From the IMG/VR virus record IMGVR_UViG_3300045988_106851, positions 1-64,000 of that record: a stretch of 64,000 nt of DNA; one strand, 5' to 3'. This stretch comes from a virus. A program made the translations under genes and the position numbers. The notes under the pieces were generated by a model. The model did no database searches. It was not told the DNA's origin and saw only the letters and a program-made list of their open reading frames with translations. This document shows positions 11,059 to 27,296 of this stretch, piece after piece; the stretch's first letter is position 1; each line of letters starts with the position of its first letter.

Positions 11059-12405
11059 TTACTCATTTTCGTTTTCCTTTATTTTTTCGGCCTTTTTGCC
11101 TGTGTAGGTTTCCCAACGGTTGATGATAACATCGCAATAATGTGGGTCAAGCTCCATTGAGAAACCCTTGCGGTTGAGTTGTTCGCACGCCATGATTGTT
11201 GTACCGCTACCACCGAAGCTGTCGTATACATTCCAGCCTTCCTGTGATGAGTTCTGAATAAGATATGCGAAGAGTGGAATAGGTTTCATGGTCGGATGTT
11301 CGACACTCTTGGTCGGTCGGTCAAACTCCATAACGGTAGTTTGTTTTCTGTCACTGAACCAATTATGGCTTGCTCCCTTTTTCCAACCATACAAGCAAGG
11401 TTCATGTCGCCATTGGTAGTCTTGTCTTCCGAGCACCATAGAGTTCTTAGCCCATATAAGGTTCTCACGTAACTCCAAATCAACAGTATTAATAAGGGCT
11501 TTTCTGAACCAATAGGAGTAGCCATCACTGTGGAATATATAGAAGGAGGCCCCTTTCCTCATGTTGGCGTTTGCAGCATTAAAGGCGTTTGTCAAGAACT
11601 GCTCGAACTTGTCGTTATCCATTTTGTCATTCAAGACAACAAGCCCGTCTTTACGATGGCCTTCAGTTGCACTGTTGTCGTATCCATAGGCTACATTATA
11701 AGGAGGGTCGGTTAGGTAGAGTTGTATCTGCTGACCATCAAGAAGCAATGCCACTTGCGCGGCATCCGTTGAGTCGCCGCACATAAGGCGATGTTGCCCT
11801 AACTGCCAAATGTCTCCAAGTTTGCACTTAGTCTCAATTTCATGCTCATTCTCATCATAGTTGTCATCTTCTGTTTCTTTGCGCTCTGACATCTGTTCGA
11901 CAGGTTCTGTGTCGGTTAAAAAGGAGCAATCCACTCCCCAATCTTGCAACTCATCGACTGTCCAGTCGCCGTTAGCAAGCTCATCCCAATCCCAGTTACC
12001 TGCTTGTACGTTGTCCTTGATAGCATACTCCTTGATTTTCTGAATTGGGGTATCGGTCTTCAAGACGAAACAAGGCAGCTTATCGAAGTTCGTATTTCCA
12101 CCGATGCGTAACTCGTTAGCCACTCTGAGGCGCATATTACCGCAGATGGTGACGTATGTACCATCCTCCAAGCCATAAACCATCAAAGGCTTGTACTCTA
12201 AGAACTCTGGGCTATCGGCGAGTGACTTGACGAGATTGTCGTGCTCGCTCTCCTTTAAGTAGCGAGGGTTCTTTGGAACGCCATCAATCTGCCCCTCATT
12301 ATAGAGGAGCTTTGTAATGTCAATCATTTCACGTAAACCCAGCTTTACAAGAAGCTCATCCTTTGCGATGTATGGGTTCTGAGAGATTTTCTTTTCTCTT
12401 GACAT
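11059..12405 (-). CDS. ParB-N domain-fused DNA N6-adenine/N4-cytosine methyltransferase
   Basis: N-terminal ParB-like ICGNMRLRVANEL. Catalytic LYLTDPPYNVAYG (DPPY) is followed by SAM-binding DSFGGSGTT, which is the beta-class motif order. Confidence 0.9.
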   Translation of the reverse strand: MSREKKISQNPYIAKDELLVKLGLREMIDITKLLYNEGQIDGVPKNPRYLKESEHDNLVKSLADSPEFLEYKPLMVYGLEDGTYVTICGNMRLRVANELRIGGNTNFDKLPCFVLKTDTPIQKIKEYAIKDNVQAGNWDWDELANGDWTVDELQDWGVDCSFLTDTEPVEQMSERKETEDDNYDENEHEIETKCKLGDIWQLGQHRLMCGDSTDAAQVALLLDGQQIQLYLTDPPYNVAYGYDNSATEGHRKDGLVVLNDKMDNDKFEQFLTNAFNAANANMRKGASFYIFHSDGYSYWFRKALINTVDLELRENLIWAKNSMVLGRQDYQWRHEPCLYGWKKGASHNWFSDRKQTTVMEFDRPTKSVEHPTMKPIPLFAYLIQNSSQEGWNVYDSFGGSGTTIMACEQLNRKGFSMELDPHYCDVIINRWETYTGKKAEKIKENENE

Positions 12406-16869: not shown

Positions 16870-17718
16870 ATGAGATACATGAGAAAAACGCCAGTAGAGG
16901 CTATCCAGTGGAAGGGGGACAATCAGAAAGAAGTCTCTAATTTTATCAGTCCTACTACCGAGTCCTATTGTACTACGCTGGACGACCGTTACGGCAACCT
17001 TGATATATCCTACGCAGACCTTAAGGGGCGTAATTTTAATGCTGTCGTTCCTAAGTTCGGATGGGTTGTGAGAGATGGCAAAACCTTTCAGTTCTACAAG
17101 GATGCCACATTTAGAAAGACCTTTGGAAAAGTGCAGAAAGACGATTACAAAGGCATTGACAGGGAAGGCATGAGCAATACCCTCAAGGAGGCTCTTGACG
17201 GTTGTGATGAGCTTTTCAAAGGCTTTAAGGATGTCTTTAGAGCGGAGCCATACAAGGAGACTTTGGGCGCAGGAGTATGTATCACCCCCGACCATATAAA
17301 GATTGACAACCTTTACAAAGGCTATGAAAAGACCCACGAGGAAGTCAAGCTCTCTGATGGATTGAAAGAGATGGCAAGCAACAAAGAGAAAGAGTACTCG
17401 CATGGCAAAGCAAAAGGTATCGAATCCGACACCTTTGAGTCCGTTCTCAACGAAATGAGAAACCTTCACGCCAAGAAGAACAAGGACTACGGTGACGCGT
17501 TCCACAAGAGCTTCGAGGAGTTCGGTGTTACTGCCGGTGTTGTACGCCTTAATGATAAGATGGAGCGTGTGAAGAGTCTTGTGAAGAATGGCAAGGCGGA
17601 AGTCAAGGACGAGAGTCTGATGGACACGTTGAAGGACATGGCAAGCTATGCTGTCATGTTGTATGTGGAACTTAAAAATAAAGAACGGAGAATTTGTAGT
17701 AGCGGAGAATTATTATGA
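16870..17718 (+). CDS. protein with a C-terminal all-alpha MazG/DUF1599-like domain
   Basis: NLHAKKNKDYGDAF...GVVRLNDKMERVKSL...LKDMASYAVM fits the KxxDYG...RxxDKxxR pattern of MazG-like/DUF1599 domains (recollection-level match). Confidence 0.45.
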   Translation: MRYMRKTPVEAIQWKGDNQKEVSNFISPTTESYCTTLDDRYGNLDISYADLKGRNFNAVVPKFGWVVRDGKTFQFYKDATFRKTFGKVQKDDYKGIDREGMSNTLKEALDGCDELFKGFKDVFRAEPYKETLGAGVCITPDHIKIDNLYKGYEKTHEEVKLSDGLKEMASNKEKEYSHGKAKGIESDTFESVLNEMRNLHAKKNKDYGDAFHKSFEEFGVTAGVVRLNDKMERVKSLVKNGKAEVKDESLMDTLKDMASYAVMLYVELKNKERRICSSGELL

Positions 17719-18062
17719 TTGACGAAAAGACAATAGACGAGGGTGCAAGAGATTATATCAACAAAAACGGTTATTTTGTCAAGTATGACGAAGACCCTTG
17801 TGTTGATATAGAGTTTGCTTATAAAGAGGGTGCTATGTGGGCTATCAATGAGTTCTTGAAGGACTTGTGGCATAACAATAGTGAGAAGCCTGTAATGAGT
17901 GAGCATGGTATGATACTTGTTGAGCTTAATGATATTACCGCTTGCAAATACTCTTTGTGGCGTAGTACTACAACCTACGAAAGCCTTTGCAACAACGCAG
18001 GATATGTTCACCGTTGGCTCTATATAGATGATTTGCTTCCAAAGAAAGGAGGTGCTGAATGA
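17715..18062 (+). CDS. hypothetical protein (FLKDLWH / WLYxDDxLP family)
   Basis: AINEFLKDLWH...HRWLYIDDLLPKK is paralogous to the 15587-15826 product. Confidence 0.5.
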   Translation: MIDEKTIDEGARDYINKNGYFVKYDEDPCVDIEFAYKEGAMWAINEFLKDLWHNNSEKPVMSEHGMILVELNDITACKYSLWRSTTTYESLCNNAGYVHRWLYIDDLLPKKGGAE

Positions 18063-18265
18063 AACCAGAAGCTATCCTATCCATCATTACATACCTGACT
18101 TTAACGTACATTCTCTATAATACCTTACTTGGATATGCAGACGTTGGCAAAGAGAGCACCATTGGAATACTACTCCGCTTCCCTGCAATGATTTCAGCCC
18201 TATGGATATGCAACCAATTAGCTGACATAAATACTAAGGATGGAGGCGACGATGGACAAGATTAG
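18059..18265 (+). CDS. small membrane protein
   Basis: 68 aa with two hydrophobic helices and an ATGA overlap with the upstream gene. Confidence 0.45.
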   Translation: MKPEAILSIITYLTLTYILYNTLLGYADVGKESTIGILLRFPAMISALWICNQLADINTKDGGDDGQD

Positions 18266-18383
18266 CGAATTGTCATACCTTCACCTTATAGCACAGCTCG
18301 AAGAAGAAAACAGGCTCTTGCGAGACGAGGCAAAACACCTACGCCTCACGATAAAGGATTACTTAAACAAAAAAAACGCATGA
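18252..18383 (+). CDS. 43-aa coiled-coil mini-protein
   Basis: Not in the ORF track because it is under 60 aa. ATG at 18252 gives MDKISELSYLHLIAQLEEENRLLRDEAKHLRLTIKDYLNKKNA. The stop overlaps the next ATG. Confidence 0.35.
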   Translation: MDKISELSYLHLIAQLEEENRLLRDEAKHLRLTIKDYLNKKNA

Positions 18384-18553
18384 AAATCAGACTGGCAAAG
18401 AAAATAATGAACACGAGGACAGACCGCCTTGCCGCATATTGGTATGACAGGTTGGTTGATACCTTGGTCGCTCAAACAAGGATAGACCATCGAATCAAAA
18501 AGGCGGCAAGGCTAATAAGCAAGTACAATTACAAAAAATTCAACAAGCAGTAA
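18380..18553 (+). CDS. 57-aa protein (MKIRLAKKIM family)
   Basis: Not in the track. MKIRLAKKIMNTRTDRLAAYWYDRL...HRIKKAARL is paralogous to the 25600-25812 product (MKIRLAKKIMAQQ...HRLIKAMKML). Confidence 0.45.
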   Translation: MKIRLAKKIMNTRTDRLAAYWYDRLVDTLVAQTRIDHRIKKAARLISKYNYKKFNKQ

Positions 18554-18608
18554 ACTACCTACAGGCTAAAGACCTATGGGTTTTACGGCACTCAATATAA
18601 ATGATAAT
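18554..18608 (+). repeat. conserved intergenic cassette, copy 2
   Basis: ACTACCtacagGCTAAAGACCtatgGGTTTTACGgCACTcAaTATAAA aligns with 16804-16860. Confidence 0.6.
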
Positions 18609-18695
18609 ATGAGAACAATTAAGTTTAAGGCTAAGACATTGAAGGATGGCGAATACTTTAAGACTGAAGAAGAAAAGGAGGCCGACAATGATTAA
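18609..18695 (+). CDS. 28-codon mini-ORF with a YopX-like N-terminal motif (possibly a remnant)
   Basis: MRTIKFKAKTLKDGEYFKTEEEKEADND. The stop overlaps the ATG at 18688 of the following reading frame. Confidence 0.3.
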   Translation: MRTIKFKAKTLKDGEYFKTEEEKEADND

Positions 18696-19149
18696 AGCAG
18701 AAGACCTTAGAATAGGCGACATTGTGCAGACAAACAAAGACTGCATGTTTCCGAAAGACACATTGTGCATCGTTACCGAAATCCATCCCGACCGACAGTT
18801 TAATGACAAAAAGGGAGTCGTCAGTCTGAAGGCTGTCAACGACGAAGACGACGGTCCCTGGGGGACATGGTGCTGCAACATCGATGGCGTGCCCATCACG
18901 CCCGAAATACTTCGCAATAATGACTTTAAGGAAGAAGTCGAAGGCAAATACTTCACAAGGCCAATCAAAGTCAGAGCAGGCAGTTCCCTTGCCAGATATT
19001 TGGCTGTAGAACGAAAAAAATACGCTTGGGCAATATTCATAAAGTATTACAACGTGACAGGCTATGCACTCTTATGTCATGTAAAGTACGTTCACGAACT
19101 ACGGCTCGCCCTTAAAATAGTAAAATTTAATCCGGAAATGAAAGTATAA
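18646..19149 (+). CDS. hypothetical protein
   Basis: 167-codon ORF. An alternative ATG at 18688 (MIKAEDL) is translationally coupled to the mini-ORF at 18609-18695. Confidence 0.5.
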   Translation: MANTLRLKKKRRPTMIKAEDLRIGDIVQTNKDCMFPKDTLCIVTEIHPDRQFNDKKGVVSLKAVNDEDDGPWGTWCCNIDGVPITPEILRNNDFKEEVEGKYFTRPIKVRAGSSLARYLAVERKKYAWAIFIKYYNVTGYALLCHVKYVHELRLALKIVKFNPEMKV

Positions 19150-19177
19150 TGTGGATGAATAAGTAAGTAACAAAACA

Positions 19178-19312
19178 ATGACTGACATTAAGATTTCGGT
19201 GCATCCGTTTGGCCATAAGCTCGAATGGCGAGGATGGGGGGGTAACTTCTCGCCTGCTCTACGAGCCACCGACTACAAATGCCCTCACTGTATAATGATT
19301 GAATATGACTAA
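19178..19312 (+). CDS. C5-methyltransferase TRD-like mini-protein (module a)
   Basis: 44 aa: ...WGGNFSPALRATDYKCPHCIMIEYD. Has a TRD-like xPxLRAxDYK core and an IEYD-stop tag. The next ATG is embedded at 19305. Confidence 0.55.
   Translation: MTDIKISVHPFGHKLEWRGWGGNFSPALRATDYKCPHCIMIEYD
19236..19242 (+). repeat. coding G7 homopolymer (in frame)
   Basis: TGG GGG GGT encodes WGG in module a. Confidence 0.9.
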
Positions 19313-19439
19313 GCAACACCCATTCGATGATTTTCATCAGCGCATTCATTGGGACGGCAACTCCATCGGAACCGTTACCCAGCAATGGGGCAATCCTGCG
19401 CCGAGGCACGGATGGCGAATAATGACAGAATATGATTAA
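19305..19439 (+). CDS. TRD-like mini-protein (module b)
   Basis: 44 aa: ...NSIGTVTQQWGNPAPRHGWRIMTEYD, ending in EYD-stop. The next ATG is at 19432. Confidence 0.5.
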   Translation: MTKQHPFDDFHQRIHWDGNSIGTVTQQWGNPAPRHGWRIMTEYD

Positions 19440-19758
19440 CCCTCACACGCCCCGCTACAAGCGCGGCACCATCACCAAGGACGGCAAGCTATACGGACGC
19501 TATCCCGACGGTTCGCTCTACCGCATCTACTCCACCTCTGACCGACCCTTCCTTCAGATTGTTGACCGCAAGGGCGAGACGTTCCTTCGCATACGCCAAG
19601 CCACCGAGCAGGGCTATACCGACTGCCCTTGCCCTGGTGCTGCCGACCTCAGCTATTCCTCCTCGGCTCTAAGGCGCAGCAGGACGGTTGGGGGGGGTAA
19701 GCTGGTGAACGCTCTGACCGCAGCAAGCGGAGGGGCGTGCGTGTTTGTTGAATTATGA
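19432..19758 (+). CDS. TRD-like protein (module c)
   Basis: 108 aa: ...TVGGGKLVNALTAASGGACVFVEL, carrying the VEL-stop tag shared with modules f and o. Confidence 0.5.
   Translation: MINPHTPRYKRGTITKDGKLYGRYPDGSLYRIYSTSDRPFLQIVDRKGETFLRIRQATEQGYTDCPCPGAADLSYSSSALRRSRTVGGGKLVNALTAASGGACVFVEL
19690..19697 (+). repeat. coding G8 homopolymer (in frame)
   Basis: GTT GGG GGG GGT encodes VGGG in module c. Confidence 0.9.
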
Positions 19759-19765
19759 CTTGAAT

Positions 19766-19942
19766 ATGCTTAGAGCAAAGGCAATATCAATAATGGTGAA
19801 AAAGGTGGAGCAGACCATGGTGTTTCAGAACATGCAAGCCAAAGGTCTGATAACGCCTCGCTCGCTTGATGGCGAATGTTTTACTCTTACGTCTGCAATG
19901 GGATTAGGGGGGGCAAACGCCTGTAATAGTAAAGGTATATGA
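19766..19942 (+). CDS. TRD-like mini-protein (module d), C-terminus probably out of the conserved frame
   Basis: ...GECFTLTSAMGLGG then ANACNSKGI-stop as assembled. One fewer G gives GGQTPVIVKVYD-stop at 19944-19946, which recreates the canonical TATGACTAA junction. Confidence 0.5.
   Translation: MLRAKAISIMVKKVEQTMVFQNMQAKGLITPRSLDGECFTLTSAMGLGGANACNSKGI
19907..19913 (+). repeat. coding G7 homopolymer (breaks the conserved frame)
   Basis: See module d. G6 or G9 would restore the Y-D-stop tag. Confidence 0.8.
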
Positions 19943-20070
19943 CTAAATACGACCTCTACCAATATCCTCGTGGCTACAACGACGGAGGTAGATTAGGCAC
20001 TGACGTTTGCCCGACCTTGACAATCAATTCGTGGCAGCAAAATGTATTTCTGATTGAAGAATATGAATAA
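19939..20070 (+). CDS. TRD-like mini-protein (module e)
   Basis: 43 aa: MTKYDLYQYPRGYNDGGRLGTDVCPTLTINSWQQNVFLIEEYE, with a classic PTLT TRD core. Confidence 0.6.
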   Translation: MTKYDLYQYPRGYNDGGRLGTDVCPTLTINSWQQNVFLIEEYE

Positions 20071-20082
20071 AGCAAAGACAAT

Positions 20083-21418
20083 ATGATCACAAAACTCAAT
20101 TTCACCGACCGCACCATCAAGAGCTATGCTATCCGTAAGCTCACGCCAAAGGAGTGTTTCCGCTTGATGGGCGTTCGCGACAACGTAATCGGCACGATGC
20201 AGAGCAGCAATGCCCAAGCAGCCGAACGTTTGCCCGACTGGAAGGGCAAGGGCAAACCCGAAGACATGGCTATATCTGCCTCACAGCAGTACAAGCAAGC
20301 CGGAAACTCAATCGTGGTGGACGTGTTGGCCCACATCTACGAGCAACTTTTCTATCCCGCACCGCCCAAGCCCCGCAAGCAGGAACAGCTCACGCTCTTC
20401 GCCGACCTTGATGACTCGCTGCCCGCCATGCCACCAACAGCCGGAGAACGTGGTAAGGAAAATCTTTTCCTCACCACGTTCTCCGGCTACGACTCGCAGC
20501 TCATGGCAGCCGACGTGCTATGCGAGTGGCATCCCGACTTCCGATGGACATGCGTAGGATGGAGCGACATCGACAAATACGCCTGTCAGATGCACAACCT
20601 CGTCTTCCCTCAGTTTGCCGACTGCGCCCTTGGCGACATCACCAAGATTGACTGGCATGAGGTGAAACGCTCGCTCCATGGGCGCGAGGTTGACATCTTC
20701 ACCTATTCCTCGCCTTGCCAGGACATCAGCCAAGCCGGAAAGCAAATGGGACTGAAAGAGGGTAGCGACACACGCTCCGCCTTGCTTTGGCGTGTGGCGG
20801 ATGCCGTGGAGGTGCTTCGCCCGAAGTATCTCTTGCAGGAGAACGTGGCGGCACTGGTAAGCCAGAAGTTCATGCCCGACTTTCAGAAGTGGCTCGACAA
20901 ACTCTCGTCGCTCGGCTACGTCTCTCGCTGGGCTCGTCTCTCGCTGGGCTCGTCTCAACGCCAAGAACTACGGTGTGCCGCAGAACCGCGACCGTGTGTT
21001 CTGCATCTCCATGCGCCAGGACGTAGCCTTCGACTATCAGTTTCCCGAACCCTTCGAGCTGCGCACCCGACTGGAGGACGTGTTGGAAAATGAGGTAGCC
21101 GACCGTTATTTCCTAAAAGACGATGCCGTGAGCAAATCCCTCAAGGCTAACGACTCCGACAACGCCCTCTTCGTGCAGTTTGATTTGCCACCGACACACG
21201 AGGCAGCAATGTTCTTGAAAACGTGGCTCACGTTGTGGATGCAAGCAGCCGATGGTTGGAAAATGACATCTACAAGTCTTCAGCTCGCCCTTTATTCGGC
21301 AAAGCAGAAAATGGAGCTGTCTTATTCCGTGTTCACGGATAAGGGAGTGGCTGCGTTAGGCGATGAGTTTCAATTGTTGTTCAAGGAGAATATGGAGAGG
21401 AAGAAGGATGCGAACTGA
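20083..21418 (+). pseudogene. dcm: circularly permuted cytosine-C5 DNA methyltransferase core, frameshifted by a 16-bp tandem duplication
   Basis: Motif order: IX (RKLTPKECFRLMG), X (YKQAGNSIVV), linker, I (LFLTTFSGYDS), IV (YSSPCQDIS), VI (LLQENV). The frame then breaks at 20920-20951, and motif VIII (GVPQNRDRVFCIS) continues in another frame to 21418. Confidence 0.8.
20920..20951 (+). repeat. perfect 16-bp tandem duplication (GTCTCTCGCTGGGCTC x2)
   Basis: Read directly at 20920-20935 and 20936-20951. Deleting one copy gives the continuous sequence ...LGYVSRWARLNAKNYGVPQNRDRVFCIS. Confidence 0.95.
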
Positions 21419-21599
21419 CAACCCGCCCGACCGTGTAATCCGTATCATAGCTGATATGATTAGGGGTGGTAGGTTGCTCACCTGCCCTGCCTCAATGTTC
21501 AGCGCAGAGCGTTTCAACGGAGCCTTTCACGGCATAGCAATAACCATCATGTCGCGCACCGATTGCAGCGACGTATTCTTTGTAGCAGTAGAATTATGA
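21408..21599 (+). CDS. TRD-like mini-protein (module f)
   Basis: 63 aa: ...HGIAITIMSRTDCSDVFFVAVEL. The ATG overlaps the core stop. Carries the VEL-stop tag, with the next ATG embedded at 21596. Confidence 0.5.
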   Translation: MRTDNPPDRVIRIIADMIRGGRLLTCPASMFSAERFNGAFHGIAITIMSRTDCSDVFFVAVEL

Positions 21600-21742
21600 C
21601 ACTCCCTTTCAACACCGAATCCGACGGTACATCACATACTATTAAATCCCAATATTTCAAAATGGGAGCAGCGAATGTGCTCGACATTTCGTTTGACGGT
21701 GCCAACTTTAAAGCCACTGGCGCAATCGTGATATATGAATAA
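21596..21742 (+). CDS. TRD-like mini-protein (module g)
   Basis: 48 aa: ...GTSHTIKSQYFKMGAANVL...ATGAIVIYE. Confidence 0.55.
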   Translation: MTLPFNTESDGTSHTIKSQYFKMGAANVLDISFDGANFKATGAIVIYE

Positions 21743-21887
21743 CAACCCTCGACCCATCATCCTCGGCTCCTACAGCCCCTCGCAGAACGGCATCATCGTG
21801 TCACCACACGGCATAGCCTTGTGCATAGCCGGGGGTGGTAAGGGCCACGATGTGGACAAACCGAAAATACTGATAGAATATGATTGA
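21735..21887 (+). CDS. TRD-like mini-protein (module h)
   Basis: 50 aa: ...SPHGIALCIAGGGKGHDVDKPKILIEYD. Confidence 0.55.
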   Translation: MNNNPRPIILGSYSPSQNGIIVSPHGIALCIAGGGKGHDVDKPKILIEYD

Positions 21888-22062
21888 CCGTTCCGTCCTC
21901 GTCCACTACCGCACCGAAGAGGCGAAAGCCTACCGCCGCGAGCATGGCGACCGTGGAGGGTGCAAATACCAAGACAAACTGCATCTCCCCAGTCCGTGGC
22001 CGTGGAGTAATTCGATAACAACAGTAACAAAAGACAACCTCCTATGCGTAATATTCAGATAG
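21880..22062 (+). CDS. TRD-like mini-protein (module i)
   Basis: 60 aa: ...RTEEAKAYRREHGD...NSITTVTKDNLLCVIFR. The next ATG (22044) lies inside its 3' end. Confidence 0.5.
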   Translation: MIDRSVLVHYRTEEAKAYRREHGDRGGCKYQDKLHLPSPWPWSNSITTVTKDNLLCVIFR

Positions 22063-22218
22063 CTGCCTTCCGAGGTCGCGACCCCGACAACCCGTCCGAC
22101 CGCAAGCATCCCTCCTGCGGTCGTTTCCGTCAGCGCATGGAGATAAACGGGGGGGGGTACAACCAACACGCTTACGTCAGTAGGCAAGGATAATATGGCA
22201 TATATAGAGTATGAATAA
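22044..22218 (+). pseudogene. TRD-like module j, frameshifted at a G9 tract
   Basis: As assembled: ...QRMEINGGGYNQHAYVSRQG-stop at 22193. With G8: ...EINGGGTTNTLTSVGKDNMAYIEYE-stop at 22216-22218, with the canonical junction. Confidence 0.7.
22149..22157 (+). repeat. coding G9 homopolymer (breaks the conserved frame)
   Basis: Counted directly: gg + ggggggg. Confidence 0.9.
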
Positions 22219-22360
22219 TCAAATCCCATTCGTGCAACGCCTCTCGCGTTTCTGCCCACGTCGGGGCTACTCCACCGCCCTGTCCGCACGCTACGACGGA
22301 TGGGCAGGACTCTACGACGAGCACGGACAGCACACCATTGTATTGATAGAGTATGAATAA
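22211..22360 (+). CDS. TRD-like mini-protein (module k)
   Basis: 49 aa: ...RRGYSTALSARYDGWAGLYDEHGQHTIVLIEYE. Confidence 0.55.
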   Translation: MNNQIPFVQRLSRFCPRRGYSTALSARYDGWAGLYDEHGQHTIVLIEYE

Positions 22361-22493
22361 GTATATACTAAATTGCTCGTCAGGTATCTGTTGCGTTTTG
22401 GCCTCTCATTACGCAAGAGAAGGATGGGCGAACATAGCAAATAATACAACATCACAATGTAAAGCACCCGCAATATTGATAGAGTATGACTGA
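22353..22493 (+). CDS. TRD-like mini-protein (module l)
   Basis: 46 aa: ...SGICCVLASHYAREGWANIANNTTSQCKAPAILIEYD. Confidence 0.55.
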   Translation: MNKYILNCSSGICCVLASHYAREGWANIANNTTSQCKAPAILIEYD

Positions 22494-22665
22494 CAAGTAT
22501 TACATTGGCTGGGTACGCAGCGGCAAGGACGGCAAGGGCCTCGTAAAGAGCCGACCGTGCAAGCGGATAGCCAATGCCGTGACGACAATGGTCGGAAGAG
22601 GTATTGCCGACCCTCGCGACGGACTCGGCAACACCACACCGCATATAGTATATGAATATGAGTAA
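22486..22665 (+). CDS. TRD-like mini-protein (module m)
   Basis: 59 aa: ...RIANAVTTMVGRGIADPRDGLGNTTPHIVYEYE. Confidence 0.5.
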   Translation: MTDKYYIGWVRSGKDGKGLVKSRPCKRIANAVTTMVGRGIADPRDGLGNTTPHIVYEYE

Positions 22666-22685
22666 CCAATAAAACAAAAAAAACA

Positions 22686-23138
22686 ATGGAAAAAGAAACA
22701 AATAACCGTATGGAGGCACTTGCCTACATCATAGCCGACCTAAAGGCAGAGAACATAGAGCTGGTGCAGCGTGTGCATCAGCTTGTGGAGGATTACAACG
22801 ACGTAGCACGTCAGTTGCGTGGAATGGAGAAGCGTAAGGACGAAGACCAGTCAAGGCAGACGCTCGGCGAAATGATGCAGATGCGCGACCATTGCGACAA
22901 ACTGGAGGTTGAAAACAACAATTTGAAGACGTGCTTGATAGCAGTCAGCTCGTTTCTGCGAGACAAAAATCTGTATATGGCTAATGGCACATTATGTTCT
23001 TATGGGTCTGGCAATCCAGAAGTATGTCCTGAGTACTGCAAAAAATGTAACTCCTACCTAAGTACTTTAAAGGATGTTGGTGTGGTTTGCAGCAGAAGAC
23101 TTGCAGAAGCTTCCGTAATTTTTGCGAAGAGTAAATGA
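22686..23138 (+). CDS. coiled-coil protein with a Cys-rich C-terminus, hypothetical
   Basis: 150 aa with heptad-like N-terminal two-thirds. Inserted between TRD modules m and o. The stop overlaps the module-o ATG. Confidence 0.5.
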   Translation: MEKETNNRMEALAYIIADLKAENIELVQRVHQLVEDYNDVARQLRGMEKRKDEDQSRQTLGEMMQMRDHCDKLEVENNNLKTCLIAVSSFLRDKNLYMANGTLCSYGSGNPEVCPEYCKKCNSYLSTLKDVGVVCSRRLAEASVIFAKSK

Positions 23139-23297
23139 CACCAACAAAAACCCTCGTGGTCGGCATGATGCAGACGCCACCCTATGACCGCATGTTTGAG
23201 CAGAGCCGCCGCGTGTACTCCGCTCAGGGAATATCGCCCACGCTGCATACACAAGGGGGGGGGTGATAGAGAGATTAAGGTATTGGTGGAGCTGTAA
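23135..23297 (+). pseudogene. TRD-like module o, frameshifted at a G9 tract
   Basis: As assembled: ...RVYSAQGISPTLHTQGGG-stop (23264-23266). With G8: ...GGGDREIKVLVEL-stop at 23295-23297. Confidence 0.65.
23255..23263 (+). repeat. coding G9 homopolymer (breaks the conserved frame)
   Basis: Counted directly: gggggg + ggg. Confidence 0.9.
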
Positions 23298-23419
23298 GAA
23301 TGTCCGCTCCATATCGCCGACAACACCTATCTTTGTACATATCACTGATATGATACGAATGAGACTAACATCGTTTTCATTTGTTTCGTTTGGTGACAAA
23401 CAAAAACAACATTTCATCT

Positions 23420-23773
23420 ATGATACAACATCAGCATTGGGAAGACTCCACTCACATACTCATTACCGACGAGCAGCATCATGGCAGCATACAGGTGTTC
23501 ATCCCCAAGCGCACCGAAGACAAGCCCTTGGATGGCGAGGCTGACGCTCTCGTCTATTCGCTGTGGGTGGGCGAACGGCACCGTGGCCGTGGGGTGGCAA
23601 AACTCCTGATGGAGACAGCCGAAAGGGAACTGAAGCGCTGCGGCATAGCGACCGTCGCTATATCGTGGGATGGACGCGACTCTCCCCAATGGGTGTTGCA
23701 ATGGTATGAAAGGTTGGGCTACGAAGGAAAAGCGTTCGACTACCGCTGCTGCACGCTTCTTAAACGGTTGTAG
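23420..23773 (+). CDS. GNAT family N-acetyltransferase
   Basis: VGERHRGRGVAKLLMETAERELKRCG is the acetyl-CoA-binding (Q/R)xxGxG/A motif A. The first ATG is at 23420; the track ORF opens with TTG at 23381. Confidence 0.7.
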   Translation: MIQHQHWEDSTHILITDEQHHGSIQVFIPKRTEDKPLDGEADALVYSLWVGERHRGRGVAKLLMETAERELKRCGIATVAISWDGRDSPQWVLQWYERLGYEGKAFDYRCCTLLKRL

Positions 23774-24014
23774 CCAAACAAAAAAACTCATTCCGAAGGC
23801 CAAAGGACCGTACTCAGTGTGTCGCATGTCGCCACTCCGTCCAACGTATTTAACGGGCTCTGGTGCAGACGAGCGAGGAGAAGGAAAACCTCAAAAGCGT
23901 TCTTTGACTTGTTGGAATACCGCGAAAAAACAAGAAATTGTAAAACATTCCGCAAATTCCGCGCCGTTTATGTTTATATAACAATACAAAGTTGCCAGTG
24001 TGGTGATTTTCCCA

Positions 24015-24022
24015 TACCTTTG
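24015..24022 (+). promoter_or_regulatory. Bacteroidota-type -7 box candidate (TACCTTTG)
   Basis: TAnnTTTG, 47 nt upstream of the ATG at 24069. Confidence 0.35.
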
Positions 24023-24068
24023 CAACGCAAAATATACATAGCATAATACACTTATAGAATTTCGGCTT

Positions 24069-24596
24069 ATGAAAACAAACGCGCTCTCCGTCGCCAACTA
24101 TTTCATAGAGTTGTCTATAAAGGACAAGAAACCCATACACTTGCTTGGGCTTGTCAAACGTGTTTATATTGCACATGGATTCGCCTTGGCATTACTACAT
24201 CGTGGTTTAATAAACGAAAGGTTTGACAAGGTGGAGGCATGGAAATACGGACCGGTCATACCGTCCGTTTACCATTCATTCAAACAGTATCGAGCAAGGG
24301 AGATAACGGGGAAAACTGTTGTTATGGAATGGGACGAGAGAGAAAAATGTCCAATATTTGAAACTCCAAGCCTAACTGCCAAAGATGAGAAAAGAATAGT
24401 AGAGATGGTATGGAGAAGGTATATTTCATATTCAGATAGCGAGTTGGTAAGTTTAACCCACATGAAAGGTACTCCGTGGGACATGTGTTTCATTGAGGGG
24501 GAAAATGTAACGATTCCAGATATTCTTACAGAAGACTATTACAGAAGGCTAATTGAAAGAGTCGCGTCAAGAAAGGGTATCTCATGGGAAAATTAG
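24069..24596 (+). CDS. Panacea/DUF4065 (SocA/GepA-like) antitoxin-domain protein
   Basis: ALSVANYFIELS...HLLGLVKRVYIAHGFALA...VEAWKYGPVIPSVYHSFKQY matches the DUF4065 N-terminal pattern. Confidence 0.65.
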   Translation: MKTNALSVANYFIELSIKDKKPIHLLGLVKRVYIAHGFALALLHRGLINERFDKVEAWKYGPVIPSVYHSFKQYRAREITGKTVVMEWDEREKCPIFETPSLTAKDEKRIVEMVWRRYISYSDSELVSLTHMKGTPWDMCFIEGENVTIPDILTEDYYRRLIERVASRKGISWEN

Positions 24597-24967
24597 ATTT
24601 AATAGATGCTCTTGAGGAAAGTAATGATAAAAATATCGAATTATCTGATGAGCGCGCAATACAAGTAGAACCTATAAACGGTGATGGAAATGCCATTCTT
24701 GCTATACAACAAAAGAAAATCCAACGACTGGATGAAGAGATAAAAGACCTGAAACAGGACAGGGAACAGAGAAAAGTATTAAGCTATGCCTTATTTGGCT
24801 TTATGTGTTTCTATATGCTTGTGGCATTGTTTATTGTGTTCTGCTGTGGCTTCGGATGGATGTATCTTTCTGACAAGGTGCTAATAACGCTAATGACCAC
24901 GACATTGGCAGACGTTATAGGCATATTTGGTTTTGTTGCAAAATATCTATATCATAACAAACCATAG
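24584..24967 (+). CDS. small membrane protein, candidate toxin partner of the Panacea-domain gene
   Basis: Overlaps the upstream gene by 13 nt. Has a coiled-coil N-terminus and two C-terminal TM helices (LSYALFGFMCFYMLVALFIVFCC and LITLMTTTLADVIGIFGFV). Confidence 0.45.
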   Translation: MGKLDLIDALEESNDKNIELSDERAIQVEPINGDGNAILAIQQKKIQRLDEEIKDLKQDREQRKVLSYALFGFMCFYMLVALFIVFCCGFGWMYLSDKVLITLMTTTLADVIGIFGFVAKYLYHNKP

Positions 24968-25068
24968 TTAGGGAGCTTCGCTTCGCATTGCCCCCCTTTC
25001 TTCTTTTCAAGCGGTATTCCACTCATCGGAGTGCCGCTTTTGTCGTACAATACAAATTGAAGAACAAC

Positions 25069-25356
25069 ATGAAATACAAGAGACTATTGGAATACTACGT
25101 CAACAAAAGGCTTGAAGCCTTGACCGACGTCGATGACTACGCCCCCGAGAAGCTAACCCTATCAAACCTGCGATGGTTTCTGAGGCACGTGGACAGTGTC
25201 GACGTGGTGTTGGCCAAGCTACGCACGATGGTTGACGCTGGCAAGAAGAGAAAGGCGTACCTGTCAAGGTTCGGCGTAACCGATGACGGATTAGAATACG
25301 TCGAGGCAGAAGACAAGATCGGCAGGGAATGCCTGGGCATCCTGCAAGTGAAATAA
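25069..25356 (+). CDS. hypothetical protein
   Basis: ATG at 25069 (MKYKRLLEYY). The track ORF opens earlier with a non-ATG codon. Confidence 0.45.
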   Translation: MKYKRLLEYYVNKRLEALTDVDDYAPEKLTLSNLRWFLRHVDSVDVVLAKLRTMVDAGKKRKAYLSRFGVTDDGLEYVEAEDKIGRECLGILQVK

Positions 25357-25381
25357 AAGACTTATAAAAAAATGGGAAAAC

Positions 25382-25603
25382 ATGAAAAAGTTTGAGTACA
25401 GATTAGAGTTGTACCAATTCAAGGTCAATAACGACTTAGCCTCCAACATCGAGAAGGCCTTTCGCAAGGAGGGGCTGAACGGTTGGGAGCTGGTACAATG
25501 GGAAGGAGCGCAAGGCACGATAGGGGGCTTACGTTCTTTATGTGACCTCACCGCAGACACCGTGTCTATTATCGCCACTTGGAAGAGGGAGGTGGAACAA
25601 TGA
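25382..25603 (+). CDS. DUF4177-like protein
   Basis: MKKFEYRLE...FRKEGLNGWELVQWEG resembles DUF4177 (recollection-level match). Confidence 0.45.
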   Translation: MKKFEYRLELYQFKVNNDLASNIEKAFRKEGLNGWELVQWEGAQGTIGGLRSLCDLTADTVSIIATWKREVEQ

Positions 25604-25812
25604 AAATCCGTCTCGCTAAGAAAATCATGGCGCAACAGCCTTACGGCTGCGGCGGGAAGATGGTCAACAAGCACCCCATGCGCTATTGGCACTGGCGATG
25701 GCTCGAATGGTACAACAAGCTGCATCGAACACCATACAAGCTGCGAGGGTTGGTGCTGGACCACCGTCTCATAAAGGCAATGAAAATGTTGAGAAGAAGG
25801 TCTGGAGGATAG
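25600..25812 (+). CDS. small protein (MKIRLAKKIM family)
   Basis: ATGA overlap with the upstream gene. Paralogue of the 18380-18553 product. Confidence 0.45.
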   Translation: MKIRLAKKIMAQQPYGCGGKMVNKHPMRYWHWRWLEWYNKLHRTPYKLRGLVLDHRLIKAMKMLRRRSGG

Positions 25813-25820
25813 CTACATGA

Positions 25821-25865
25821 AAGGGCATGATTGTCTTTCGATAGTCTTGCCCTTACTTTTTATTA
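25821..25865 (+). terminator. intrinsic terminator closing the early plus-strand operon
   Basis: Stem AAGGGCA (25821-25827) / TGCCCTT (25848-25854) followed by ACTTTTTATT. Overlaps the integrase stop codon. Confidence 0.5.
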
Positions 25866-27022
25866 TAAAGCACGTAATCTATCACTTTACGATTGGCCTC
25901 ATCTATTTTATTCTGGTCTTTCTTGATATATACATTTGTTATTTTATGTCCGCCTTTATGGCCTAAGCAGTCTGCTATAATATCAATACTGATACCAATT
26001 TGATAAGCTATGGTCGCAAATGAATGCCTTGCCCAATATGTCGTAATCTTAGGCAAGCCGAGCTCAGAGCTTATATTGCGCAACATCTTGTTTATATTAA
26101 TTTCAAAGTTCTTGCAATCCTTTTCGCCATCAAAGACATTTAAGAGATGCTTTTCGCCTTTGTAACGGTTGATAATTTCAAGTGCCTCTGGTTCTACCTT
26201 AATATCATAAAGCGTCCCAGTCTTTGACCGTCGATAAATTACCCTCCCATTCTCGATTGAAGATAAACCGAATAAATCAATTATGTTAATTCCCATCAAG
26301 AAAAATACAAGAAAGAATATATCACGATATTTTGTGCGTAACCGAGAAAGTTTCGCATTATATAAAGTTCTCAACTCTTCGACGGTTAACGCTCTTTTTT
26401 TCGTCTCTTCCATCCGTATGGTGTACATATCAAAGACATACTCTTTTAGTAATCCTTTTTTGCGAGCAAAGTTAAGGACGGCACGAATATTCATTAGCCG
26501 TATGGCGATGGTATTTTTGGAATTACCATTTTTTTTCAAAAAAGAGACAAAACTATTAATCCAGTCTATATCAATGTCCGAAAGCAACAGGCTATCGTAA
26601 TCACAGAATGCAGAAATTTTTGATTCTGTGTATAAATAGATATTCTTTGTCCCTTGCCTGTCTTTTGTAGAGAGCAACTCTTGGAATTGGGTCTTAAGCA
26701 AATAATCATTATCTGGCTCGCCTTCGCCAGACAAAAATTGAGCAAGCCGCCTATTTGAAAAGCTACGAAGTTTTCCTTCCTCTCTAAGTTCTTCAATTTT
26801 ATCGTTGACGTAAGTCACCTTTTTTGATAGTCTTAGATTGTCTATGCGCTGGCTTTGCCTTTTCTTTATCTTACTATTAGCCACATCCCATTCTTTCTCT
26901 TCAAGTTCAAAACCTGTAGAGAGGTAAAAAGCACCGCCATTCCGAGCGACCTTGATTTTTAATGGATATTTACCATTTTTCAAGCGATACCTCTTATCCA
27001 ATTTTACTGTAACTTTTATCAT
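25853..27022 (-). CDS. int: tyrosine-type site-specific integrase
   Basis: N-terminal arm-binding-like MIKVTVKLDKRYRLKNGKYPLKIKV. C-terminal catalytic region ARHSFATIAY...CLGHKGGHKITNVYI contains R, H-x-x-R-like and Y elements. Confidence 0.85.
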   Translation of the reverse strand: MIKVTVKLDKRYRLKNGKYPLKIKVARNGGAFYLSTGFELEEKEWDVANSKIKKRQSQRIDNLRLSKKVTYVNDKIEELREEGKLRSFSNRRLAQFLSGEGEPDNDYLLKTQFQELLSTKDRQGTKNIYLYTESKISAFCDYDSLLLSDIDIDWINSFVSFLKKNGNSKNTIAIRLMNIRAVLNFARKKGLLKEYVFDMYTIRMEETKKRALTVEELRTLYNAKLSRLRTKYRDIFFLVFFLMGINIIDLFGLSSIENGRVIYRRSKTGTLYDIKVEPEALEIINRYKGEKHLLNVFDGEKDCKNFEININKMLRNISSELGLPKITTYWARHSFATIAYQIGISIDIIADCLGHKGGHKITNVYIKKDQNKIDEANRKVIDYVLYNKK

Positions 27023-27296
27023 TTTGCTCTTTACTATTTTGCATTATATTTGCACGTTTGTTTGTACGAAATGAACACAATTGCCCAAAAATGGCAAAAG
27101 CGATAAAGAAGGTATGTGGTAGCAAAGATAAGCATTTCTCGTGTTTTTTCGCCTATTTATGCCAATTAATATCAAATTCAAAGGCATATCTTGAAGAAAA
27201 GCTGCACAAAAAGTATATCTTACTAAGTACCAGCGCATTACTTCCTTTAGCTACAAAGTCCTTGCACGTTTTTCACATCTTTCTTTAATTGGAAAA

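Follow-up and report, generated by a model that had tools for sequence, protein, structure and literature searches.

The locus described here raises the question of whether a run of nine G residues that shifts the reading frame of a small phage gene is a mistake of the assembly, one step in the decay of that gene or one position of a genetic switch. The window, by which we mean the whole stretch of 64,000 nucleotides that was analyzed (positions 1 to 64,000 of the IMG/VR record IMGVR_UViG_3300045988_106851), is that of a temperate tailed phage, since it encodes a tape-measure protein, a portal, a large terminase, a major head protein and an integrase. The explanation that we favor, and that we regard as likely, is that G9 arose by slippage as a real and inherited +1 allele of a hypermutable poly-G tract within a minigene, which we call module j, for a target-recognition domain (TRD) of the circularly permuted C5-cytosine methyltransferase of the phage. 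The features of module j and of its junction with the next minigene are the following.

22044 to 22193, + strand: module j ORF as assembled, 49 aa, truncated; the exact product is present on 6 contigs.
22044 to 22218, + strand: full coding region of module j, a 57-aa stand-alone TRD minigene with G8.
22149 to 22157, + strand: G9 homopolymer of module j.
22204 to 22218, + strand: stop/start overlap junction ATAGAGTATGAATAA, with the TAA of module j at 22216-22218 (G8 frame) and the ATG of module k at 22211.
22211 to 22360, + strand: module k, the next minigene, 49 aa.

The tract is one base longer than the in-frame G8, occupies codons 36-38 of the minigene and codes for a Gly-Gly-Gly loop immediately ahead of the TNTLT recognition motif; it is a mononucleotide repeat of at least 7 within a coding region. 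As assembled, the ORF encodes MRNIQIAAFRGRDPDNPSDRKHPSCGRFRQRMEINGGGYNQHAYVSRQG* and loses the conserved end, as it reads MRNIQIAAFRGRDPDNPSDRKHPSCGRFRQRMEINGGG, next 11 out-of-frame residues after GGG and then a stop. If one G is deleted, the frame runs through ..EINGGGTTNTLTSVGKDNMAYIEYE* to the TAA at 22216-22218, and the C-terminus of the resulting 57-aa protein (..TTNTLTSVGKDNMAYIEYE*) lies at the stop/start junction with module k. The conserved product of 57 aa is obtained with G8, truncated products of 45-55 aa are obtained with G9, G7 and G6, and the TNTLT sequence, which is the conserved Thr-Leu recognition loop and aligns with TSNTIT of phage Javan179, is confined to the G8 frame. 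The junction 15-mer ATAGAGTATGAATAA recurs at 22346-22360, where it closes module k. In the G9 state the stop of module j sits 17 nt 5' of the module k ATG and does not overlap the start of that gene. The first-pass annotation had proposed that G9 displaces module j from its conserved frame and that G8 restores both TNTLT and the junction carrying the ATG at 22211; the assembled ORF does stop at 22193, and translation confirms both points.

That annotation also placed the conserved information in the G8 frame, a claim that is now strongly supported by the lengths of the homologs, by the recurrence of the exact 57-aa product, by pN/pS values and by the intact tails of the shifted alleles. All module j homologs in the related loci, whether or not they carry a homopolymer, have an 8-nt-equivalent length at the tract, and in-frame tracts that are not homopolymers include AAC GTT GGA GGT ACA, AAC GTG CTG GGT ATT and AAC GGT GGG GGT ACA. 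The exact G8 protein (P0001) is encoded on about 20 other contigs, and the related protein clusters, of which there are about 195, are nearly all exactly 57 aa long and lie on Caudoviricetes contigs of 50-100 kb. Among 31 distinct intact alleles pN/pS was 0.28 in the G8 frame versus 1.85 and 1.16 in the other two frames. In comparative terms, G8 is shown to be the ancestral, selected frame of module j.

In tblastn searches module j matched annotated cytosine methyltransferases from Streptococcus phages and from Dulem virus 39 at 53-60% identity, and the matches fell within their variable region, the TRD segment that lies between motifs VIII and IX in C5-methyltransferases. When module j is joined to the N-terminus of the methyltransferase core encoded upstream of it, the two are collinear with the TRD-IX-X segment of Javan179_0020 (E = 5e-33). 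Judged from these alignments, module j is a TRD of a phage C5-cytosine methyltransferase. It is a stand-alone ORF with its own ATG and stop and does not share a polypeptide with the catalytic motifs. A search of 1.8 billion representatives returned stand-alone proteins of 50-76 aa as its close relatives and segments embedded in proteins of 200-500 aa as its distant ones. None of the nine minigene modules that were tested alone was recognized by Pfam, PF00145 included, and phmmer found no match for module j alone among the PDB sequences; an alignment to a PDB sequence was obtained only with a module-plus-core concatenate, for module n against M.HhaI.

Module j is one of fourteen small TRD-like ORFs of 43-108 aa, five upstream and nine downstream of the methyltransferase core. 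The features that define this arrangement are listed below.

19178 to 20070, + strand: upstream minigenes with overlapping stops and starts, namely module a (19178-19312), b (19305-19439), c (19432-19758), d (19766-19942 as assembled, ending at 19946 if its tract is G6) and e (19939-20070).
19236 to 19242, + strand: G7 tract in module a, in frame here; G8 to G11 in relatives.
19690 to 19697, + strand: G8 tract in module c, in frame here; G7, G10 and G11 in relatives.
19907 to 19913, + strand: G7 tract in module d, out of frame.
20083 to 21418, + strand: circularly permuted C5-cytosine methyltransferase core (PF00145, E = 2.4e-51).
20919 to 20950, + strand: 16-nt tandem duplication CGTCTCTCGCTGGGCT, two exact copies, by which the core is frameshifted between motifs VI and VIII.
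21408 to 22665, + strand: downstream minigenes, namely module f (21408-21599), g (21596-21742), h (21735-21887), i (21880-22062), j, k, l (22353-22493) and m (22486-22665).
23255 to 23263, + strand: G9 tract in module n (23135-23266 as assembled), +1.

The motifs of the core follow the order IX-X-I-IV-VI-VIII and read IRKLTPKEC (IX), QAGNS (X), FSGYDS (I), SSPCQDIS (IV), ENV (VI) and QNRDRVF (VIII). The protein would be 439 aa long once repaired and is split in the window into ORFs of 336 aa and 147 aa; with one copy of the 16-nt duplication removed, the frame continues through ..GYVSRWARLNAKNYGVPQNRDRVF.. and the protein of 439 aa shares 93% identity with the intact core of contig L019. The duplication is specific to one clone (the window, L006, L008 and L122) and is missing from all other relatives, and the broken core allele was found on five contigs. 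This lesion had gone unmentioned in the first-pass annotation. More than 7,500 homologs of the core exist, and those among the best 120 listed are nearly all 434-449 aa long, which indicates that the cores end before the modules begin. Other lesions were found in the cores of relatives, namely nonsense codons at positions 216 and 285 (L002, L064) and 2-nt insertions (L001, L003), so that cores are also inactivated by ordinary mutations and their loss of function appears to be tolerated or favored without a switch. The pattern suggests a repeated loss of core methyltransferase activity in nature. A natural covalent fusion of core and TRD exists in L014 (9250-9260), where an A3-to-A4 change at the stop/start overlap, relative to L011 (9520-9530), joins the core in frame to the next minigene and yields a protein of 481 aa instead of 433 + 48. 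AlphaFold2 gave a pLDDT of 34 with a 16-sequence alignment of the core; the homologs that could be retrieved were all >77% identical.

Further observations on these methyltransferase genes can be recorded here. A 24-nt near-perfect inverted repeat lies within the core gene (20439-20488 of the window), its 5' arm being an inverted copy of the motif-I coding sequence that stands where relatives have another sequence; the repeat has the appearance of a template-switch (quasi-palindrome) mutation confined to the lineage of the window. Some relatives carry an intein with Hint and LAGLIDADG domains near residue 212 of the core (L005 6290-8680; L009 3-2327), which lengthens the protein to about 796 aa. 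The unrelated Streptococcus phage Javan179 (L073 567-1845) has a C5-methyltransferase of conventional motif order that is likewise split, into a first ORF with motifs I-VIII and the TRD-like end ..GGAVIELIE* and, after a gap of 100 nt, a second ORF that contains a module-j-like TRD followed by motifs IX-X.

The TRD-like units are separate ORFs in alternating frames. In most of them the C-terminus is ..IEYE/D* or ..VEL* and the stop is overlapped by the following ATG, and several carry hallmarks of C5-methyltransferase TRDs (SPALRA, CPTLT, SPTLHTQGGG and TNTLT). We rejected programmed frameshifting, or hopping, as an account of the IEYE*/ATG junctions, since these are simple overlaps of stop and start (ATGA, ATGAATAA) in which no slippery heptamer is found, and the length of 57 aa is conserved as a separate ORF. 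A scan for promoters and terminators inside the array gave nothing above shuffled sequences.

All five G runs of at least 7 in the 64 kb of the window are inside this 4.1-kb array, between 19236 and 23263, and the window has no C run of that length. Dinucleotide-preserving shuffles predict 0.17 G9/C9 runs per window by chance versus the two that are observed. The glycines that the tracts encode have functional positions, as in module n, where the GGG aligns to residues 255-257 of M.HhaI, directly past T250-L251, within recognition loop II of that enzyme. With G8, module n yields a 53-aa product (..SPTLHTQGGGDREIKVLVEL*); nine relatives have G8 and the 53-aa ORF, and one has G7. In module d, G6 is found in L019, L063, L068 and L071 and restores ..GGQTPVIVKVYD* together with the stop/start junction, and G8 is found in L003, L004 and L007. 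With the relatives included, the tracts range from G7 to G11 in modules a and c, from G6 to G8 in module d and from G7 to G9 in module n, and the combinations of tract lengths differ between close relatives.

The enrichment extends to the phage family as a whole. In about 1 Mb of related loci, coding-strand G runs of at least 7 occur at 0.576 per kb in the module regions versus 0.028 per kb elsewhere, a density about 20 times higher; the core genes in that set contain none, and its module regions show no excess of C, A or T runs. The 168 G runs fall into 38 flank clusters spread over many different modules, including homologs of window modules f, h and k, whose versions in the window are interrupted at those places. 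Sites that were seen at least 4 times nearly all vary in length, with a maximum of G12 and, once, G15. Outside the array GGG, at 14.6%, is used for glycine less often than any other codon, and GGG-GGG does not occur among 68 Gly-Gly pairs. Across these related loci, poly-G tracts are shown to be a strand-specific hallmark of the minigene arrays.

The variation of the module j tract was examined in 112 non-redundant related loci, which were gathered by looking up exact proteins and by scanning with gapped patterns. A 23-mer containing at least 8 G's had no exact match in IMG/VR, and the gapped pattern was required; megablast and blastn searches of 50,697 GenBank phage records with the array found no nucleotide match. 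The alleles at module j are distributed as follows.

Pure G run: G9 in nine loci, G8 in 13, G7 in six and G6 in three; 13 in frame, 18 out of frame.
Interrupted tract: various alleles; 77 in frame, 4 out of frame.

The difference in frame status between pure and interrupted tracts is significant both by locus (Fisher's exact p = 3e-9) and by distinct haplotype (p = 4e-7), and each of the four interrupted alleles that are out of frame is one G short within a G run. G8 and G9 both occur on identical flanks of ±150 nt in the group to which the window belongs, G7 and G8 both occur on such identical flanks in two further haplotypes, and G9 is found on at least 4 separate sequence backgrounds. From these alleles, which run from G6 to G9 among related phages, the module j tract is shown to be hypermutable in nature. 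The tail (GTTNTLTSVGKDNM..Y[E/D/F/L]*) is intact in the shifted frame in 15 of the 15 out-of-frame alleles checked, which argues for recent or reversible events and against old pseudogenes. Two findings limit how the tract is to be viewed. The window and L008 are identical over 9.7 kb, array included, and have identical tract states, which suggests that switching is not extremely fast; and most lineages have interrupted, stable tracts at module j, which indicates that a pure tract is not required there.

The strongest competitor of the slippage-allele explanation, which we nevertheless consider unlikely, is that the methyltransferase system was killed by the 16-nt duplication and is decaying neutrally, so that G9 is one frameshift among several and frameshifts appear fastest at the most mutable sites, the poly-G tracts having no selected role in switching. 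The state of the window genome is what such decay would produce, with the core frameshifted throughout the clone and three of the five tracts out of frame; on the identical flanks mentioned above, G9 goes with a broken core and G8 with an intact one, and the nonsense codons and small insertions in the cores of relatives indicate that loss is tolerated. Against this, module j is OFF beside an intact 439-aa core on five contigs (L039, L076, L045, L094 and L099), and in the phasotype table tracts are likewise OFF beside an intact core in L063, L071, L068, L070, L004 and L007. The version in which decay begins only after the death of the core is rejected, since OFF alleles are found together with intact cores. 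Neutral decay also fits poorly with a downstream frame that is undamaged in every shifted allele, and the roughly 20-fold, strand-specific enrichment of pure G tracts at 38 sites in many non-homologous modules, made of the rarest glycine codon, is not readily accounted for unless there is selection or a highly specific bias of mutation.

A further possibility, to which we give very little credence, is that decoding is leaky: slippage of RNA polymerase or a +1 ribosomal shift on G9 would still yield some 57-aa TRD, and G9 would be a state of low expression and not a null. The perfect preservation of the downstream frame in all shifted alleles and the persistence of G9 in a clone found in several samples are what this would predict, and long homopolymers are known sites of transcriptional slippage. 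Such slippage is documented mainly for A/T runs, however; the tract has no stimulatory structure or conserved shift signal, and the G6 and G7 alleles would require different shifts. Some leaky decoding is compatible with G9 being a slippage allele and does not exclude it.

It is highly improbable that G9 is a sequencing or assembly error over a true G8 with module j intact, for although several platforms are error-prone on long G runs, one extra G being the typical error, and the same -1 correction would be needed at three tracts of the window, the identical G9 product occurs on six contigs from six different metagenome samples, the window, L006 and L008 agree at all five tracts (7/8/7/9/9), other assemblies with the same local sequence have G8, so that the effect is not systematic for the context, two of the window's G tracts preserve the frame and long ORFs remain unbroken across four A/T runs of 8, and shifted lengths are also seen in high-coverage assemblies such as L076, which carries G6 at 940x. 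Of the two origins that the first-pass annotation had left side by side, a contingency homopolymer and a sequencing error, the second is not supported and the first is borne out at the level of the population by the G6 to G9 alleles on the several backgrounds described; the reading of the module j tract as a contingency locus is, on genomic grounds, supported at that level. Frameshifted minigenes in such arrays should be neither corrected automatically nor dismissed as assembly errors.

According to the slippage-allele explanation, slipped-strand mispairing during replication would toggle each TRD minigene ON or OFF independently, and a phage population would carry mixed methylation specificities. 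The small TRD proteins would be translated by termination-reinitiation at the ATGA/ATGAATAA stop/start overlaps and would complete the TRD-less core in trans, the C-terminus and N-terminus of the core being expected to flank the natural position of a TRD; the core-module fusion of L014 fits the idea that, in topological terms, the module comes after the core. The product of the G9 allele lacks the TNTLT loop and the terminal beta-strand and is presumably inactive, and the loss of the stop/start overlap may lower the expression of module k as well. The benefit could be one of bet-hedging, since the mark would be required in the face of Type II restriction in some hosts and would itself be the target of methyl-dependent restriction in others. 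Of the five modules with tracts in the window, a and c are in frame and d (G7), j (G9) and n (G9) are shifted; the core being broken by the 16-nt duplication, the G9/OFF state probably makes no difference in this genome as long as the duplication does not revert, and the switch in this genome is probably silent at present, with no phenotypic effect of G9.

We offer a broader proposal more tentatively, as a possibility that falls somewhat short of an even chance, namely that this widespread family of temperate phages of gut Prevotella/Bacteroidales carries a combinatorial library of stand-alone TRD mini-proteins that are translationally coupled and fit in trans into the TRD-less, circularly permuted core, each minigene having a hypermutable poly-G switch of its own, and that these together form a multi-locus 'phasotype' system. 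One phage clone would then keep generating subpopulations with different sets of m5C specificities, and evasion of Type II restriction would be balanced against exposure to methyl-dependent Type IV restriction.

Switching of methyltransferases by simple sequence repeats is known from the phasevarions of Haemophilus, Neisseria, Helicobacter and Campylobacter, in which Type III mod and Type I hsd genes are affected (PMC12707154, PMC4889913). As in those systems, a homopolymer in a coding sequence slips in length, the frameshift would turn a methylation specificity ON or OFF, and tract length is polymorphic between close relatives. Unlike in phasevarions, the genome here is that of a phage, the repeat lies in a 57-codon stand-alone TRD minigene and not in a methyltransferase gene, and what would be toggled is one of many C5-methyltransferase specificities and not the whole enzyme; no role in a regulon is implied. 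Hypermutable polyG tracts are also described in Campylobacter phages (Sorensen et al. 2021, Cell Rep 35:109214, as cited in PMC12823448). The likeness lies in phage-encoded poly-G tracts, which in that case reportedly give rise to phenotypic subpopulations; the tracts of the Campylobacter phages are placed there in receptor-binding/tail-fiber genes, whereas those described here are in methyltransferase recognition modules of temperate phages of Bacteroidales (Prevotella-type).

Two other groups of enzymes can be compared with this arrangement. The Bacillus phages SPR, phi3T, rho11s and SPbeta reportedly encode multispecific C5-methyltransferases. In these enzymes several TRDs of about 40-60 aa stand side by side with one catalytic core, each TRD has a T-L type recognition loop, and the role is to protect the phage DNA from restriction. 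The arrays share with the SPR/phi3T type the use of several short adjacent TRDs with a T-L type loop for one core. In the SPR/phi3T type, however, a single polypeptide contains all the TRDs, placed between its motifs VIII and IX, whereas here each is an ORF of its own, the minigenes lie on both sides of a permuted core and have individual poly-G tracts; the separate ORFs and the permuted core indicate that the system is not a member of the multispecific family. Split or permuted C5-methyltransferases are represented by the two-subunit M.AquI and the circularly permuted M.BssHII. Like these, the present system indicates that the catalytic motifs and the TRD need neither one chain nor the canonical order, but M.AquI and M.BssHII have one fixed partner and one specificity where an array of TRD units is found here, and we know of no interchangeable array of TRD subunits and no repeat-mediated switching in either.

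In our literature search we found no account of arrays of stand-alone TRD minigenes, nor of phage methyltransferase modules that carry poly-G tracts. Phase variation of methyltransferases through repeats is known from bacterial pathogens, and switching by poly-G from the tail fibers of Campylobacter phages; here the same mutational device is found in the tiny stand-alone DNA-recognition modules of a phage cytosine methyltransferase, and it recurs at dozens of sites across a family of phages that human gut metagenomes commonly contain. Were the switches to operate as we infer, these phages could vary their own epigenetic camouflage module by module. This would bear on host range, on conflict between prophage and host and on the reading of gut methylomes, and the modules would provide a natural set of interchangeable specificity subunits for C5-methyltransferases.

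Some observations concern the genome around the array. Contig L006 matches the window at 100% identity from 17401 to 27202 and, past that point, consists of Bacteroidales host genes, which indicates that the element also occurs as a prophage. The identity of the window with the prophage contigs L006, L008 and L019 stops at about 27202, beside the integrase gene (25853-27022); beyond this point the window has phage DNA where the prophage contigs have host genes, and it therefore seems to be the excised or circular form, with a putative attP near 27202. The window encodes a second, intact DNA methyltransferase on the - strand (11059-12405), with a ParB-like N-terminus and an N6/N4-type domain (phrog_498). 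Downstream of the array, about 1.1 kb 3' of module n, relatives (L001-L005, L007, L009 and L010) carry a GNAT acetyltransferase gene and one for an RNA ligase of the RtcB family (about 392 aa). The acetyltransferase gene is retained in the window (about 23420-23773), whereas the place of the RtcB gene is taken by a SocA/Panacea-domain gene.
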